Both the position numbers and the translations under genes were made by a program. Shown one piece after another: positions 5,376 to 23,312 of a stretch of 23,312 bases of DNA (position 1 is its first letter; the number at the start of each line of letters is the position of its first letter). Below the pieces are notes generated by a model. That model saw nothing but the letters and a program-made list of their open reading frames with translations. It made no database searches and was not told the DNA's origin. This DNA is from a virus (Duplodnaviria; Heunggongvirae; Uroviricota; Caudoviricetes): IMG/VR virus record IMGVR_UViG_2541047726_000007; one strand, 5' to 3'.

Positions 5376-5819
5376 CTCGGTGGCCAGTTTTTGTTGACCA
5401 CTTCATACCCCCATCCGAGATAACACCTTCGTAATACTCACGCTGCTCGTTGAGTTTTGATTTTGTCTCCTCAAGCTCAACTCTCAGCTTCCCAACAGTA
5501 AGAGCAATATCCTCGTTCTCCTGGTCGCGGCGTTTTATGTATTGCTGGTTTCTTTCCCGTTCATCCAGCAGTGCCAGCACAGTAGCCGGATTGGCTGCGG
5601 CGATGAATTCAGCATTGGCCTGCTGTTCCATTTGGAAATCTTCATCGAAACCGCTTTCTGGATGCGCTCCTTCAATTCTGCAAATGGGAATATATCCAGC
5701 AACTTCACGATGAATTAGCGCATAATCACCATCAAATCGGCTCTCTCCATATTCGAGCGACCACTCACCACACGTTGCTTTTTCTGCCGCTTCACGCAGT
5801 GCCTGATAGTTAATTTCGC

Positions 5820-7455: not shown

Positions 7456-8237
7456 GCTGCCACCTTCTGCTCAGTGGCTTTCTGTTTCAGGAATCCAAGA
7501 GCTTTCACTGCTTCGGCCTGTGTCAGTTCTGACGATGCGCGAATGTCGCGGCGAAATATCTGGGAACAGAGCGGCAATAAGTCGTCATCCCATGTTTTAT
7601 CCAGGGCGATCAGCAGAGTGTTAATCTCCTGCATGGTTTCATCGTTAACCGGAGTGATGTCGCGTTCCGGCTGACGTTCTGCAGTGTATGCGGTATTTTC
7701 GACAATGCGCTCGGCTTCATCCTTGTCATAGATACCAGCAAATCCGAAGGCGAGACGGGCACACTGAATCATGGCTTTATGCCGTAACATCCGTTTGGGA
7801 TGCGACTGCCACGGCCCCGTGATTTCTCTGCCTTCGCGGGTTTTGAATGGTTCGCGGCGGCATTCATCCATCCACTCGGTAACGCAGATCGGATGATTGC
7901 GGTCTTTGCGGTAAATCCGGCATGTACATGATTCATTGTCCTGCTCAAAGTCCATACCATCAAACTGCTGGTTTTCATTGATGATGCGGGACCAGCCATC
8001 AACGCCCACCACCGGAACAATGCCGTTCTGCTTATCAGGGAAGGCGTAAATTTCTTTCGTCCACGGATTAAGGCCGTACTGGTTGGCGACGATCAACAAT
8101 GCGATGAACTGCGCATCGCTGGCATCACCTTTAAATGCCGTCTGGCGAAGAGTGGTGATCAGTTCCTGTGGGTCGACAGAATCCATGCCGACACGTTCAG
8201 CCAGCTTCCCTGCCAGCGTTGCGAGTGCTGTACTCAT
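7452..8237 (-). CDS. bet: Recombinase Bet (Red beta), single-strand annealing protein
   Basis: 261-aa product near-identical to remembered lambda Bet; overlaps exo by 4 nt. Confidence 0.95.
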
Positions 8238-8242
8238 CCGTT

Positions 8243-8539
8243 TTATACCTCTGAATCAATATCAGCCTGATGGTGAGCAATGGTTTCAACTATGTACCGG
8301 ATGTGTTCTGCCATGCGCTCCTGAAACTCAACATCGTCATCAAACGCACGGGTAATGGCTTTTTTGCTGGCCCCGTGGCGTTGTAAATGATCGATGCATA
8401 GCGATTCAAACAGGTGCTGGGGCAGGCCTTTTTCCATGTCGTCTGCCAGTTCTGCCTCTTTCTCTTCACGGGCGATCTGCTGGTAGTGACGCGCCCAGCT
8501 CTGAGCCTCAAGACGATCCTGAATGTAATAAGCGTTCAT
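8243..8539 (-). CDS. gam: Gam (RecBCD inhibitor), 98-aa GamS form
   Basis: [21 protein letters not shown]...; AGGAG ribosome-binding site upstream. Confidence 0.9.
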
Positions 8540-17478: not shown

Positions 17479-17665
17479 CCCATCTCAATCCCTTCAATAC
17501 CTGAAAGAAAGCATAGAGCGGGCTTCAATGTGCACAGAGTGGATTCTATCTAGGTTTAGCGCATACAGAAGATTGCCGGTAAAGGGCATGCCAAGCAAGT
17601 CGATGCTGCATATGCAAAAGAATGCGCGCTGGAAGGTATGGCGAGAACACAGGTTATGTGGCTGA
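17471..17665 (+). CDS. NinF-like small protein (64 aa; N-terminus NinF-like, C-terminus divergent)
   Basis: N-terminal [10 protein letters not shown] matches remembered NinF; the rest does not. Confidence 0.45.
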
Positions 17666-17684
17666 AAGAGGGGGTTATTAAGGC

Positions 17685-18047
17685 GTGAATACCTACAGCA
17701 TCACATTACCCTGGCCTCCGAGCAATAATCGCTATTACCGCCATAATCGCGGGCGCACGCACGTCAGCGCAGAGGGGCAGGCATACCGCGATAACGTCGC
17801 CCGAATCATTAAAAACGCAATGCTGGATATCGGCCTGGCTATGCCTGTGAAAATCCGCATTGAGTGCCACATGCCGGATCGCCGTCGCCGTGACCTGGAT
17901 AATCTGCAAAAAGCCGCTTTTGACGCACTCACTAAAGCAGGTTTCTGGCTGGATGATGCTCAGGTCGTTGATTACCGCGTTGTGAAGATGCCTGTTACCA
18001 AAGGTGGGAGGCTGGAACTGACCATCACCGAAATGGGGAATGAATGA
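17685..18047 (+). CDS. rusA: Holliday junction resolvase RusA
   Basis: 120-aa product matching remembered E. coli DLP12 RusA. Confidence 0.9.
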
Positions 18048-18184
18048 TGTTTGAGTTTAATATGGCAGAACTTCTTCGCCACCGCTGGGGGCGTCTGCGC
18101 TTATATCGTTTCCTCGGTTCTGTTTTGACCGATTACCGAATACTGAAGAATTACGCCAAAACCCTGACAGGAACAGGAGTATGA
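18044..18184 (+). CDS. Small protein in the ylcG position (46 aa)
   Basis: [23 protein letters not shown]...; ATG overlaps the rusA stop; below the ORF-track cut-off. Confidence 0.5.
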
Positions 18185-18269
18185 AGTCAGAGATAACAAT
18201 CAACTAATACTGTTTTGTTGATTTTTGCTTGTAATTGGCGTTCTGGTCTGATTTTTGTGGAGTAAGTTG

Positions 18270-18653
18270 ATGCGTGATATTCAGATGGTTCTTGAGCGTT
18301 GGGGTGCGTGGGCGGCTAATAATCATGAAGATGTGACCTGGTCGTCCATTGCCGCCGGTTTTAAGGGATTAATTCCTTCAAAAGTAAAATCTCGCCCGCA
18401 ATGTTGTGACGATGACGCGATGATCATTTGCGGGTGCATGGCCCGTCTGAAAAAGAACAACAGCGATTTACACGATTTATTAGTAGATTATTATGTATGT
18501 GGTATGACATTCATGTCACTGGCAAGTAAGCATTGCTGCTCGGATGGTTATATCGGGAAAAGGTTACAGAAGGCTGAGGGCATAATTGAAGGGATGTTAA
18601 TGGCATTAGATATCCGGTTAGATATGGATATCGTTGCTAATAATTCTAATTGA
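18270..18653 (+). CDS. Q: Late-gene antiterminator Q (DLP12 QuuD / phage 21-82 type), 127 aa
   Basis: [24 protein letters not shown]... matches remembered QuuD; GGAG site before the ATG at 18270. Confidence 0.8.
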
Positions 18654-18679
18654 TATGCAATTGTTTACTAAAAGTTATT

Positions 18680-18703
18680 AAAAATGGGGCGTGGAAACGC
18701 CCC
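18680..18703 (-). terminator. GC-rich hairpin with a minus-strand U-tract (possible nmpC terminator or pR'-proximal structure)
   Basis: GGGGCG-uggaaa-CGCCCC; the minus strand continues AUUUUUAAU. Confidence 0.35.
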
Positions 18704-18790
18704 CAAAATAAAGGGTAATATATAACAGAAGGTTTATATAGTAAGAAGCAAGGTAGTGCTTCTAAAGGAAGTGGCTTGAGGGCTCCACTT

Positions 18791-18830
18791 ATATGTTGCG
18801 GAGGCAAAGCCTCCCGCAACATATCTTTTT
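18791..18830 (+). terminator. Intrinsic terminator downstream of Q (tR'-like), convergent with the nmpC 3' end
   Basis: About 15-bp stem ATATGTTGCGGAGGC / GCCTCCCGCAACATAT, then CTTTTTCG. Confidence 0.55.
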
Positions 18831-18841
18831 CGTAAGTCAGA

Positions 18842-19924
18842 TTAGAACTGATAAACCAGACCTACAGCGACGATGTCGTCGGTATCAATACCAGCTGTTT
18901 TGGTAAACTTACTATCGTCAATTAAGTTGATTTTGTAATCAACAAAAGTGGACATGTTTTTATTAAAGTAGTAAGTAGCACCGACATCGACATACTTGAC
19001 TAAGTCTCGGTCACCATGAACACCAAGGTCTTTACCTTTTGACTGAAGGTAAGCAACAGATGGACGCAGACCGAAGTCAAACTGATATTGTGCTACTGCT
19101 TCAAAGTTTTGTGCTTTGTTTGCAATATGGTTATTACCAAAAACGGTCATATTCTGAGTTTCAGAATATGTGGTAGCCAGATAGATATTGTTCGCATCAT
19201 ATTTCAGGCCTGCAGCCCATACTTCCGCATTTTTGCCGGAGGCATTGAATTTGCTCTTACCATAGGCGACCTGACCGTCAGTGCGATCTGATTTAGCATA
19301 GGTTGCACCCACGCCGAATCCTTCATACTCATAAGTAGTGGAGAAACCGAAACCATCACCATTGGCTTCAGTTACGTCAGTGCGGTCATTTTTACCCTGA
19401 TACTGAGCAGCAAAGTTCAGGCCATCGACCAGACCAAAGAAGTCGTTGTTACGATAAGTTGCAACACCAGTAGTGCGACCAGTCATGAACACATCTGTTT
19501 GGGTCCAGGTATCACCACCGAATTCTGGCAGAACGTCAGTCCACGCACCGATGTCGTATGCTACACCGTAGTTACGGCCGTAATCGATTGAGCCGTAATC
19601 ACCAAATTTCAGGCCTGCAAATGCAAGACGGGTTTTGTCTTTGGAAGAACCTTGAGATTCAGCACGGTTGCCTTTGAATTCATATTCCCACTGACCGAAA
19701 CCAGTCAGTTGATCGTTGATTTGGGTTTCACCTTTGAAGCCAAGACGGGCATAAGTAGTATCACCATCATCTGCATCATTAGAGGAGAAGTAGTGCTTGG
19801 CATTAACTTTCCCGTATAGATCCAGCTTGTTACTGTCTTTATTATAAATTTCAGCTGCCTGAGCAGACATCGCCATCAGTACTGATGCAGCTACAGCAGA
19901 AATTGCCACTGTTAATTTTTTCAT
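18842..19924 (-). CDS. nmpC: Outer-membrane porin, OmpC/OmpF family (NmpC / Lc-type lysogenic-conversion porin), intact
   Basis: Signal peptide [23 protein letters not shown] followed by porin beta-barrel features and a C-terminal ...VGLVYQF. Confidence 0.9.
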
Positions 19925-20350
19925 TGTACGCCCTTTTTTTGAACTTTTATTAAAAAATGATGTCACTGCGCGATAAATATTCATCTAATCAATGTGATTA
20001 TTTCAAGATGTAAGTTTTAGTTTCTCATTTAATTTGTGAAGTAGATCTCTATTTTTATCTGAACCTTTTCTATCTAATCCTATTCATGGCTCTTGTCTGA
20101 ACAAAAATAAATCTATTAGCTAATTTATATTAATGGCACTTATTTATAAGTGCTCTATAATTCTTTAGCTTAATTTAAACAAACTAAAAATAACATCGGA
20201 AATTATTAACTGGTTATTTGTTGAAGTTTTCTTATGCATTTGTGGTGGTGTTTTGAACACTCGGTGGCATTCTCACAAATATCATTTAGTAGTTTACGTA
20301 CGTAAAAAATTGGTTATGCTGTTAAGAGTGGTTACTTCGTCACACAGCTT

Positions 20351-20383
20351 AAACCCGCCGTCGAGCGGGTTTTTCCATTTTTT
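20351..20383 (+). terminator. Intrinsic terminator in the nmpC-holin intergenic region
   Basis: AAACCCGC-cgtcga-GCGGGTTT followed by TTCCATTTTTTG. Confidence 0.7.
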
Positions 20384-20512
20384 GAGTCTCGATATTAGCT
20401 GATAACCCAATACCTGAGTTATTCACTGACTCCGAATCTGTTACGTTTCTGCCTTTATTGCGATACGTAGTATCCCCTTAATTTACACCCGCTTTGTCTG
20501 CGAGGTGGGGTT

Positions 20513-20728
20513 ATGAAATCCATGGATAAGTTAACAACGGGTGTCGCCTATGGTACCTCAGCAGGTAGTGCCGGGTACTGGTTTTTACAGTTGCTCGATA
20601 AAGTCACGCCCTCACAGTGGGCGGCAATAGGTGTGCTGGGTAGCCTGGTATTTGGCCTGCTGACGTACCTGACAAACCTTTATTTCAAGATTAAAGAAGA
20701 TAAGCGCAAGGCTGCGAGAGGTGAATAA
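20513..20728 (+). CDS. S: Class II holin (phage 21 S-type pinholin) with MKSM dual-start motif
   Basis: 71-aa product with two transmembrane segments, S21-like; GAGGTGGGG site upstream. Confidence 0.85.
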
Positions 20729-21225
20729 TGCCTCCATCATTACGAAAAGCCGTTGCTGCTGCTATTGGTGGCGGAGCAATTGCTATAGCATCAGTGTTAA
20801 TCACTGGCCCAAGTGGTAACGATGGTCTGGAAGGTGTCAGCTACATACCATACAAAGATATTGTTGGTGTATGGACTGTATGTCACGGGCATACAGGAAA
20901 AGACATCATGCTCGGTAAAACGTATACCAAAGCAGAATGCAAAGCCCTCCTGAATAAAGACCTTGCCACGGTCGCCAGACAAATTAACCCGTACATCAAA
21001 GTCGATATACCGGAAACAATGCGCGGCGCTCTTTACTCATTCGTTTACAACGTGGGTGCTGGCAATTTCAGAACATCGACGCTTCTTCGCAAAATAAACC
21101 AGGGCGATATCAAAGGCGCATGTGATCAGCTACGTCGCTGGACATATGCTGGCGGTAAGCAATGGAAAGGTCTCATGACTCGTCGTGAGATTGAGCGTGA
21201 AATCTGTTTGTGGGGTCAGCAATGA
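20728..21225 (+). CDS. R: SAR endolysin (phage 21 R-type lysozyme with N-terminal signal-anchor-release domain)
   Basis: Gly/Ala-rich N-terminal weak transmembrane domain followed by a lysozyme-like region; 165 aa. Confidence 0.85.
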
Positions 21226-21683
21226 ACAGAGTAACCGCGATTATCTCCGCTCTGGTTATCTGCATCATCGTCTGCCTGTCATGGGCTGTTAATCATTACC
21301 GTGATAACGCCATTACCTACAAAGCCCAGCGCGACAAAAATGCCAGAGAACTGACGCTGGCGAACGCGGCAATTACTGACATACAGATGCGTCAGCGTGA
21401 TGTTGCTGCGCTCGATGCAAAATACACGAAGGAGTTAGCTGATGCGAAAGCTGAAAATGATGCTCTGCGTGATGATGTTGCCGCTGGTCGTCGTCGGTTG
21501 CACATCAAAGCAGTCTGTCAGTCAGTGCGTGAAGCCACCACCGCCTCCGGCGTGGATAATGCAGCCTCCCCCCGACTGGCAGACACCGCTGAACGGGATT
21601 ATTTCACCCTCAGAGAGAGGCTGATCACTATGCAAAAACAACTGGAAGGAACCCAGAAGTATATTAATGAGCAGTGCAGATAG
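21222..21683 (+). CDS. Rz: Spanin inner-membrane subunit Rz
   Basis: N-terminal transmembrane helix and coiled-coil-like region; ATGA overlap with R; 153 aa. Confidence 0.8.
21442..21624 (+). CDS. Rz1: Spanin outer-membrane lipoprotein Rz1, embedded in Rz in the +1 frame
   Basis: Lipobox LVVVGC and a proline-rich mature region. Confidence 0.75.
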
Positions 21684-21706: not shown

Positions 21707-22210
21707 TTATTGATAGTGTTTTATGTTCAGATAATGCCCGATGACTTTGTCATGCAGCTCCACCGATTTTGAGAACGACAGCGACTTCCGTCCCAGCCGT
21801 GCCAGGTGCTGCCTCAGATTCAGGTTATGCCGCTCAATTCGCTGCGTATATCGCTTGCTGATTACGTGCAGCTTTCCCTTCAGGCGGGATTCATACAGCG
21901 GCCAGCCATCCGTCATCCATATCACCACGTCAAAGGGTGACAGCAGGCTCATAAGACGCCCCAGCGTCGCCATAGTGCGTTCACCGAATACGTGCGCAAC
22001 AACCGTCTTCCGGAGCCTGTCATACGCGTAAAACAGCCAGCGCTGGCGCGATTTAGCCCCGACGTATCCCCACTGTTCGTCCATTTCCGCGCAGACGATG
22101 ACGTCACTGCCCGGCTGTATGCGCGAGGTTACCGACTGCGGCCTGAGTTTTTTAAATGGCGGAAAATCGTGTTGAGGCCAACGCCCATAATGCGGGCGGT
22201 TGCCCGGCAT
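21707..22210 (-). CDS. insB: IS1 InsB reading frame (expressed as InsAB' by frameshift)
   Basis: 167-aa ORF overlapping insA, IS1 InsB-like. Confidence 0.85.
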
Positions 22211-22404
22211 CCAACGCCATTCATGGCCATATCAATGATTTTCTGGTGCGTACCGGGTTGAGAAGCGGTGTAAGTGAACTGCAGTTGCCATGTTTTACGG
22301 CAGTGAGAGCAGAGATAGCGCTGATGTCCGGCGGTGCTTTTGCCGTTACGCACCACCCCGTCAGTAGCTGAACAGGAGGGACAGCTGATAGAAACAGAAG
22401 CCAC
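22129..22404 (-). CDS. insA: IS1 InsA
   Basis: 91-aa product with zinc-finger and HTH features, matching remembered InsA. Confidence 0.85.
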
Positions 22405-22459
22405 TGGAGCACCTCAAAAACACCATCATACACTAAATCAGTAAGTTGGCAGCATCACC

Positions 22460-22731
22460 CAGGCTTGTATGTTAATAGCGCAGCGACAGATGTATTTGCA
22501 GAGAAAACCACATTTGGATGTATTGCAAAAGCTGATGGTCACTTTCATGTGGTGACAAATGGTAAAGCGGTTAATGAAGTTTATTGTGAATATAATGGTG
22601 TGACCGCTGATAAAAATATCCGATTTGGAGGGCAGACGAATACTGGAGAACGACATCTGTTTGGCCATATTCGCAATTTCCGCATATGGCATAAAGAATT
22701 AAATGACAGGCAATTAAAAGAGGTCGTATGA
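22460..22731 (+). pseudogene. 3' fragment of a gene truncated by IS1; C-terminus resembles a LamG/concanavalin-like domain
   Basis: The frame is open from the IS1 boundary; ends ...LFGHIRNFRIWHKELNDRQLKEVV. Confidence 0.4.
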
Positions 22732-23006
22732 AAGATTTAACTTTGAAGTTTCATGACAAACTGCAGTTTAAGGCCTTCCTGTCATCTCTTGACTGGGAGG
22801 AGGATGAAGACCTCCAGAATAAACTGTTAGTCGATGAAATTGGTTTCACCTACACAGAAACAGGGGTAACAGAAGAGGGAGAACCTGTCTGTGTCCGGAA
22901 TGACGGTTATTTTGTCAACATTCGCATTCTTGATGACTTGTTTGATGTTTCTGTATTCTCTGATTATGTCGTGGAGCTGGAAACACCGCTTCGGGAATGG
23001 AGCTGA
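22728..23006 (+). CDS. Hypothetical acidic protein (92 aa)
   Basis: ATGA overlap with the upstream fragment; no recognisable motif. Confidence 0.5.
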   Translation: MKDLTLKFHDKLQFKAFLSSLDWEEDEDLQNKLLVDEIGFTYTETGVTEEGEPVCVRNDGYFVNIRILDDLFDVSVFSDYVVELETPLREWS

Positions 23007-23018
23007 AAGGAGGAAATA

Positions 23019-23312
23019 ATGGATATAAGCCCCTTACTTCATGCGCTTTGTGCTGTGGCTGCGCAGATACTGGTTGGTCTTTTTACCGGAAACTGGGCTT
23101 ACGGAGCGATAGCCGGTTGTACGTTCTTCATTGCGCGTGAACATACCCAGGCAGAATATCGCTGGATTGAAATGTTCGGGCATGGCAAGCGAATGAATAT
23201 GCCGTGGTGGGGCGGTTTTGATCCGCGAGCTTGGGATGTGGCAAGCCTGATGGATTTTGCTGTGCCGGTGGTGGCGTGTCTGCTGGTCTGGCTGTTGGTT
23301 AATCGTGGGTGA
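23019..23312 (+). CDS. Hypothetical small membrane protein (97 aa)
   Basis: GGAGG site upstream; predicted transmembrane segments at both ends; stop at the window end. Confidence 0.5.
   Translation: MDISPLLHALCAVAAQILVGLFTGNWAYGAIAGCTFFIAREHTQAEYRWIEMFGHGKRMNMPWWGGFDPRAWDVASLMDFAVPVVACLLVWLLVNRG

Follow-up and report, generated by a model that had tools for sequence, protein, structure and literature searches.

The question raised by the locus that we examine here is where the late transcription of a lambdoid prophage begins when a porin gene is located, in reverse orientation, between the gene of the antiterminator Q and the lysis genes: if the late promoter PR' directly follows Q, the Q-modified polymerase has to read antisense through the porin gene in order to reach the holin gene S, while a PR' that is located beyond the porin gene leads directly into S. 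The locus is part of a 23,312-nt stretch of phage DNA (IMG/VR record IMGVR_UViG_2541047726_000007), which we refer to as “the window”. Our analysis has been conducted by means of sequence, homology and literature; it is focused on positions 18654–20512, and genes are described over positions 17685–21683.

An initial annotation of this locus had described an intact porin of the OmpC family (NmpC/Lc type) with a signal peptide, transcribed in reverse between Q and the lysis genes, and had interpreted the hairpin at 18791–18830 as tR', i.e. the terminator that follows PR'; late transcription was accordingly expected to cross the porin gene. The description of the porin has been borne out by Pfam, by alignment with structures from the Protein Data Bank (PDB) and by database identities. 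The position of the late promoter is, in our reading, a different one: with a probability of roughly 80%, the cassette that consists of the NmpC/Lc porin gene and its IpeX region sits between Q and Q's own PR', and late transcription leads away from the porin.

Position of the late promoter relative to the porin gene

The predicted PR' is located on the plus strand at 20293–20347, with a −35 hexamer TTTACG (20293–20298), a 16-nt spacer, a −10 hexamer TATGCT (20315–20320) and a transcription start site (TSS) predicted at about 20327 (±3), i.e. ~1.67 kb from the stop codon of Q and ~186 nt before S. The initial transcribed sequence is the conserved AAGAGTGGTTAC.T.G.CAC, with AAGAGTGGTTAC being located at 20324–20335. 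A strong terminator at 20351–20383, already noted in the initial annotation, is confirmed by the terminator scan as a plus-strand terminator (stem at 20351–20372, followed by a T-run); situated at +25 to +57, it is the sole terminator between PR' and S, and we identify it as the terminator that follows PR', i.e. as the functional tR'.

The assignment of PR' is supported by homology with a mapped promoter. The block that extends from the −35 hexamer to about +50 (20293–20383) is ~80% identical to the PR' block of the Shiga toxin (Stx) phage VT2-Sakai, early hairpin included, and is also conserved in the DLP12 prophage of Escherichia coli K-12, in CFT073 and in phage Turner. In the Sakai Stx2a phage, the TSS of PR' has been mapped by differential RNA sequencing (dRNA-seq) to 258 nt upstream of the 3' end of tR', and the late transcript carries an RNase E site, GU|AUU, at +173 (PMC7547250). 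This TSS is the A of AAGAGTGG (position 1959 of locus L005), with the −35 (TTTACG) and −10 (TATCAT) hexamers overlapping the end of Q. Across related loci, a hairpin with a T-run is kept at about +25 to +55, with differing stems, and the recombination junction of the late region falls directly after the T-run of a terminator of this type. With regard to a sigma-dependent pause, the initial transcribed sequence is strongly conserved, yet it retains no clear −10-like hexamer with A2/T6. In our searches of the phage collection, 362 records have matched the Q-core query and 363 records the PR' block query, as separate sets whose overlap has not been computed.

We consider PR' most likely to be located at 20293–20327, to the right of the porin; because of this position, the Q-modified polymerase most likely need not cross the porin gene in antisense. 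It is homology and literature, rather than transcript mapping, that place the late promoter beyond the porin, a position that the initial annotation had itself set against its own proposal. Early transcription from PR, antiterminated by N, could by analogy with lambda still cross the porin gene in lytic growth.

The arrangement that had been proposed instead, where PR' directly follows Q, 18791–18830 is tR', and the polymerase reads antisense through the porin to S and lowers porin expression, corresponds to the canonical layout of phage lambda; the spacer also offers a strong plus-strand terminator 140–180 nt past Q, and a weak candidate promoter (TGGAAA-18-TAATAT, 18692–18721). We regard this arrangement as very unlikely. 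The candidate promoter, which is the best one upstream of the 18791 hairpin, scores at the background median of the position weight matrix (PWM), and its −35 hexamer falls within the IpeX terminator hairpin; between Q and the 18791 hairpin (18654–18790), consensus and PWM scans have found no promoter above background. The spacer between Q and the porin resembles none of the PR' sequences that belong to this Q family, while the cognate PR' block, with the clade-specific dyad that is introduced below, is located at 20293–20383 and not after Q. In addition, 15 other classes of cargo occupy the same interval between Q and PR' in related loci, and the published construct of the lysis promoter leaves the Q–porin spacer out. 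The identification of 18791–18830 as tR' is not supported, and neither is the antisense crossing, since that inference rested on PR' adjoining Q.

A different candidate for the Q-dependent promoter is located next to the porin start. The sigmaE-like site GAACTT-N16-TCAC (19941–19966, plus strand, with +1 at about 19973) is the site of the published DLP12 lysis promoter “essDp”, which has reportedly been assigned to sigmaE; the site (19941–19973) overlaps the porin 5' untranslated region (UTR), and would be divergent from, and overlap, the start region of the porin. The position of its +1 has been located indirectly: Pasqua 2021 (PMC7918800) cloned the −121 to +650 fragment of the DLP12 lysis-operon promoter, and as the forward primer maps to 19852–19871 of the window (the reverse primer being located inside S), the fragment starts at 19852 and the published +1 falls at about 19973. 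If essDp were the operative Q-dependent promoter, 20293–20327 would be a fossil or a secondary promoter, 20351–20383 would be the terminator of essDp, and late transcription would cross the promoter region of the porin, still not its open reading frame (ORF). This possibility draws on the primer mapping, on the presence of the sigmaE-like site and on PMC7918800, where the DLP12 lysis operon is reported (refs 27 and 28 therein) to be under the control of a Q-like protein and RpoE. We nevertheless consider it unlikely. The published construct, which begins at 19852, to the right of the body of the porin ORF, and excludes the Q-proximal spacer, also holds the 933W-like block, so its response to Q is not assignable to essDp from the literature consulted; moreover, essDp is located in porin-cassette DNA that other phages of this Q family lack, while the dyad block accompanies the Q clades that have been surveyed across the family, diverse as they are, the clade of phage Lambda_2E9 included.

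A clade-specific dyad and the interval between Q and PR'

The −35 hexamer of the predicted PR' is overlapped by a dyad, TTACGTACGTAA (20294–20305, plus strand), which is followed by an A-run and occurs a single time in the window. Two surveys of IMG/VR bear on its significance. In the first, where the whole Q protein was used as bait, 80 loci with a near-identical Q were obtained, all of them porin-bearing and so uninformative on other contexts; those with enough DNA all read Q, porin (minus strand), PR' motif and S. In the second survey, 80 loci were selected solely by the PR' motif TAAGAGTGGTTACNTNGNCAC. A homologue of Q from the Pfam family PF06530 (40–100% identical) is located upstream, on the same strand, in 66 of these 80 loci; the remainder are mostly without upstream DNA, and in one locus (L145), the 3.9 kb of DNA available upstream of the PR' motif contain no detectable Q-family gene.

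The alignment of positions −60 to +75 over the motif-selected loci (L089–L168) has revealed that TANNNT at −13 to −8 and an A-run at about −26 to −22 are kept, and that positions −38 to −27 form a palindrome in all of 79 motif-selected loci, with a sequence that varies between loci. When the Q proteins are clustered at 90% identity in order to define clades, each clade pairs with its own dyad sequence, which is always palindromic: TTACGTACGTAA in the QuuD clade of the window, TTACGATCGTAA in the clade of 933W and Sakai, TTACAATCGTAA in the PhiR55_1-type clade, GCGGTCCGC and GCGTACGC in two further groups of clades, and TGTTATAACA, TGGAATTCCA and TTCGTTACGAA in other clades. The pairing is independent of the gap between Q and the TSS, which is 45 nt or 1183–1676 nt within one clade and 41 nt or 1585 nt within another. 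Besides the window (20294–20305) and loci L089–L168, a dyad site has been noted at position 5773 of locus L003.

Two candidate objections to this pattern have been rejected. Phage Lambda_2E9, which has a related Q, lacks AAGAGTGGTTAC and carries a promoter-like site and a terminator right after Q, had been considered as a counter-example, until a dyad was found downstream: at 1.9 kb downstream of Q, Lambda_2E9 carries GTTTACAATCGTAAAAA with TATGAT, i.e. the dyad that is predicted by its Q clade. The possibility that the dyad is the terminator of the cargo has been rejected as well: read on the plus strand, the dyad leads into an A-run, and on the minus strand the T-run comes before the dyad rather than after it.

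The dyad that overlaps the −35 hexamer is our candidate for the Q-binding element (QBE). In the phage 21 cassette (Q21, QBE, sigma-dependent pause element (SDPE) and terminator; Yin et al. 2019), Q belongs to the same Pfam family and the lysis genes are of the same type as in the window; likewise, the promoter and the terminator of phage 21 form a compact unit of ~50 nt (−35, QBE, −10, TSS, pause element, and terminator at +3 to +50). The two systems differ in that Q21 is only distantly related to the Q of the window, in the form and the location of the QBE, and in that the PR' of phage 21 is located directly after Q. The window shares with phage 21 a PF06530 Q and an intrinsic terminator located after PR' and ahead of the late genes, and does not share a late promoter immediately downstream of Q.

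Several points weigh against our placement of PR' to the right of the porin and against its recognition through the dyad. The PR' homologue has a PWM score of 7.1, compared to 7.5 for the best candidate after Q and to a background median of 7.3; as PWM and consensus scans cannot discriminate promoters in AT-rich DNA, our promoter assignments rest on homology and co-variation. The published +1 of essDp (~19973) is located 354 nt to the left of the predicted PR'; transcript mapping of this exact locus has not been found in the accessible literature, and the TSS of the window is placed by homology. In the Sakai lysogen, the polymerase reads through the homologous early hairpin as far as +258 (PMC7547250), so the early hairpin may be a leaky terminator. 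As for the dyad, the experimentally defined QBE of Q21 is a direct repeat in the promoter spacer, not a dyad over the −35 hexamer, and, as the dyad is physically linked to the Q gene that defines the clade, part of their co-variation may reflect shared descent.

The distance between Q and the predicted TSS is ~25 nt in Stx-type phages, 46–66 nt in others and 637–2472 nt in 47 loci. The 47 long gaps contain 16 classes of cargo, with the main ORFs located on the minus strand in 15 of the 16; the porin–IpeX cassette occupies this slot more often than any other cargo in our sample (20 of the 47 loci), while elsewhere the same Q family occurs without cargo or with the 15 other classes. Four of the ten cargo proteins that were tested match candidate defence families of PADLOC: a KAP NTPase matches PDC-S20 (E 1.4e-177), an HNH nuclease matches PDC-M68A (E 7.5e-27), and the other matches are to PDC-S42 and PDC-M53A. 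Further cargo of the slot includes an alpha/beta hydrolase, an NA37-like protein, a lipoprotein and proteins of no assigned kind.

The slot is not the one where Stx phages carry their toxin genes, as the initial annotation had suggested. The Stx phages 933W and VT2-Sakai have a Q that is 81% identical to that of the window over 119 aa (the homology stops just past the conserved ...RL(D/E)MD), and a homologous PR' block with its early hairpin. In these phages, however, PR' overlaps the end of Q (gap of 22–25 nt) and the cargo, i.e. stx and nanS-p, is located downstream of PR'-tR' on the late strand, while the cargo of the window is located upstream of PR' on the opposite strand. Four hybrid loci (L025 and L040–L042) contain Q, the porin and the PR' block, and right after the T-run of the hairpin, their sequence switches to a Stx-phage-like late region with a methylase fragment and a nanS-p-like esterase gene, located before S. 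Since both slots are held side by side in these loci, the porin slot (before PR') is distinct from the Stx slot (after PR'-tR').

We lean, with some reserve, towards the view that the Q proteins of the Q21/933W family may find PR' via a clade-specific dyad at the −35 hexamer, with no need for adjacency, and that the interval between Q and PR' may be a general accessory slot, insulated on one side by the terminator that follows Q and on the other by PR'-tR', with cargo that is almost always in reverse orientation. The clade-specific dyad and the reverse-oriented cargo slot are the only parts of our findings with possible novelty; if this view is true, it yields a rule by which late promoters can be located from sequence, and a new site at which to seek the defence cargo of prophages.

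The porin–IpeX cassette and its crossed terminators

The porin ORF (minus strand) spans 18842–19984, encoding 380 aa when counted from the first ATG (19984); the true start is the ATG at 19924, so that the gene (18842–19924) encodes a general porin of the NmpC/Lc/OmpD type with 360 aa, including a normal signal peptide of 23 aa before AEIYNKD. The Pfam family Porin_1 (PF00267) covers the protein end to end (E 1.9e-151, profile positions 1–337 of 337). The mature PDB chains of OmpC, OmpK36 and OmpF align with residues 24–360, up to the C-terminal ...VYQF, with E ~1e-137 for the solved OmpC chains; because the mature chains align from residue 24, the cleavage site of the signal peptide is fixed. 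The hallmarks of general porins are present, i.e. a Sec signal peptide, the mature N-terminus AE(I/V)YNKD and a C-terminal aromatic residue (..YQF), and by comparison with the solved OmpC homologues the protein is predicted to be a trimeric diffusion channel with a 16-strand beta-barrel. It is 90–94% identical to the database clusters that are named NmpC precursor, porin protein LC and “outer membrane porin; DLP12 prophage”, and 91% identical to the nmpC fragments of K-12. Both this close identity to NmpC/Lc and the position of the gene, which faces leftward in a lambdoid prophage with Q on one side and S21-type lysis genes on the other, are those of the known NmpC/Lc cassette.

The porin is a lysogenic-conversion gene, a textbook case that is already known; the proposal of the initial annotation agrees in this respect with the NmpC/Lc identity and with expression data from CFT073. 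Both nmpC genes of CFT073, c1560 and c2348, are expressed as mRNA and protein, more strongly at 37 °C (PMC12890032), and one of the two is 100% identical to the porin of the window. NmpC has also been found in 89% of the outer-membrane proteomes of uropathogenic E. coli (UPEC), and nmpC mRNA has been reported as a target of RybB, like ompD. These reports, together with the intact porin ORF, which is 100% conserved in many genomes, make it extremely unlikely that the cassette is silent cargo, i.e. quiescent, silenced by H-NS and with no role in the lysogen. What can be put forward for such silence is the AT-rich region upstream of the porin, the disruption of K-12 nmpC by IS5, and the description in the literature of the nmpC of E. 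coli B as a quiescent porin gene.

The AT-rich region, located at 19925–20290 according to the composition profile, contains the porin 5' UTR and regulatory region. The GC content is 25–29% over 19900–20300 and rises to 37–46% over 20200–20600, so that, of the AT-rich upstream region of 590 bp that had been described, ~400 bp are indeed AT-rich, and not the whole 588-bp spacer. The best candidate for the porin promoter is TTGAAA-18-GAATAT (20006 to 19977, minus strand), with PWM scores not above background. The best match of the region to the sigma-70 consensus, ATGGCA-17-TATAAT (10/12; 20133–20161, plus strand), is located inside the same AT-rich DNA; a transcript that started from it would reach the terminator at 20351 before S.

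On the other side of the porin gene, the spacer that separates it from Q (18654–18841) is 95% identical to the quuD–nmpC spacer of K-12. Here, the porin 3' UTR (18678–18841, minus strand) is the homologue of the region of IpeX, a small RNA of DLP12. In K-12, IpeX has 167 nt, is located in the 3' region of nmpC and is part of the porin transcript; according to the literature, it reduces the host's own OmpC and OmpF porins. The corresponding sequence of the window, from the stop codon to the T-run of the terminator, has ~164 nt, and folds into five hairpins (z −7.1). An Rfam scan of 17500–21500 at E≤1 has returned just a chance, sub-threshold match to sau-19 on the 18791 hairpin; Rfam contains no IpeX model.

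All three hairpins of the initial annotation exist, and two of them are located in this spacer. The hairpin at 18686–18703 has the stem GGGGCG..CGCCCC, followed on the minus strand by AUUUUUAAUA, with no T-run after the stem on the plus strand; the terminator scan identifies it as the intrinsic terminator of the porin/IpeX transcript (18676–18703, minus strand; stem 18703–18686, then AUUUUUAAUA; free energy −13.8 kcal/mol), which places the 3' end of the porin transcript ~164 nt beyond the stop codon. The hairpin at 18791–18836, with a 15-bp stem (18791–18830) followed by CUUUUU, is a strong plus-strand terminator (free energy −21.9 kcal/mol, z −6.5 compared to shuffled sequences); on the minus strand it has no T-run or U-tract, and it most likely ends rightward transcription of Q ahead of the porin. 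The number of terminator-like sites is no higher than expected by chance (3, compared to 2.1 ± 1.1 in shuffled sequences), so that the case for the three terminators is based on their fold energies and on their conservation in related loci, not on their number.

The two terminators of the spacer are crossed (18676–18836), with the plus-strand one adjoining the stop codon of the porin and the minus-strand one adjoining the stop codon of Q. As each transcript crosses most of the spacer before it stops, the 3' end of the Q mRNA and the IpeX region are antisense to each other over ~160 nt, an overlap that could allow mutual regulation. At the sequence level, the cassette has the features of a moron, i.e. 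a minus-strand terminator of its own and a variable occurrence, as related phages are found with or without it.

Known relatives, neighbouring genes and proposed wiring

The locus represents, in intact form, the classical porin cassette of lambdoid prophages (nmpC of DLP12, lc of phage PA-2), which is already known. Prophages of E. coli CFT073, Nissle 1917 and ATCC 25922, as well as the temperate phage ev017, match the 2.5-kb Q-to-S segment at 100% identity, and a series of phages of the lambda-like kind match it at ~99%; among 5426 complete E. coli genomes, 2395 contain at least 80% of the segment. DLP12 (qsr') of K-12 has the same gene order, i.e. rusA, ylcG, quuD, nmpC (minus strand), essD, rrrD and rzpD, and the same PR' block. 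It differs in that its nmpC is split by IS5, while the gene of the window is intact; in that borD follows Rz, where the window has IS1; and in that it lacks 17 nt (CTGCCTTTATTGCGATA, window 20440–20456) in the leader that separates the terminator from the holin gene; these 17 nt are present in the window and in phage Turner.

The lc gene of PA-2, known from the literature, is likewise a phage-borne porin of the OmpC family that is expressed in the lysogen and contains ipeX in its 3' UTR; the identity of the window porin is ~90%, not 100%, to proteins named LC, through which the comparison has been made rather than through the PA-2 sequence itself. The lc porin of PA-2 is reported as a case of lysogenic conversion (Schnaitman 1975; Castillo-Keller 2006). 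OmpD of Salmonella enterica, a general porin that is ~79–80% identical to the porin of the window, differs in having no context of Q and lysis genes, and the literature consulted contains no description of it as prophage-borne, the genomic context of ompD aside.

The genes that surround the porin are those that the initial annotation had listed, i.e. Q, the S21-type holin, lysozyme, Rz and RusA, as is supported by Pfam. On the plus strand, rusA (17685–18047) and ylcG (18044–18184) are followed by the gene of Q (18270–18653), a QuuD-type antiterminator of 127 aa from the Q21/933W family (PF06530, E 7.7e-54); it is 96% identical to QuuD of K-12 and a distant match to the solved structure of Q21 (6P18, E 4e-8). 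The lysis cassette (20513–21683, plus strand; families PF04971, PF00959 and PF03245) consists of the S21-type holin gene S (20513–20728, PF04971), the lysozyme gene (20728–21225) and Rz (21210–21683), with Rz1 embedded at 21442–21624; in the annotation of CFT073 and K-12, its genes are named essD, rrrD and rzpD.

Rz is adjoined by IS1 (insA/insB, minus strand, 21707–22404), where CFT073 has iss/bor and terminase genes, and the part of the window beyond IS1 (22405–23312) contains a C-terminal fragment of a tail fibre and small ORFs. Because the junction of IS1 after Rz is absent from every complete E. coli genome of the collection that was searched, the prophage of the window looks truncated by IS1. 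In the IMG/VR prophage L020, an IS1 insertion (7738–8435) closely precedes the start of the porin gene, and neither the PR' block nor the holin gene is left; this is another case of IS1-mediated loss at this locus.

In the wiring that we propose, the porin would be a leftward, self-contained unit that starts in the AT-rich region and ends at the minus-strand terminator (18703–18676). Its IpeX 3' UTR, if it acts as reported for IpeX, would lower OmpC and OmpF of the host, and the cassette would thus swap the porins of the cell in the lysogen, as a form of conversion with a change of receptors. Rightward transcription through Q would be stopped by the plus-strand terminator at 18791–18836, while Q itself would act in trans on PR' (20293–20327), 1.67 kb from its gene, through the candidate dyad TTACGTACGTAA; Q would then act on the terminator at 20351–20383, and transcription of S would follow.

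Located between the Q gene and PR', the cassette would be outside the late operon, and for this reason we do not expect the expression of the porin to be tied to Q-dependent late transcription as that of stx is. The lysis genes would be guarded by a single, compact promoter–terminator unit. The porin adds nothing new as a discovery, being already annotated in prophages of UPEC and of the Nissle type; the dyad, as a marker, and the cargo slot could aid the annotation of late promoters and the finding of defence genes in many E. coli prophages.

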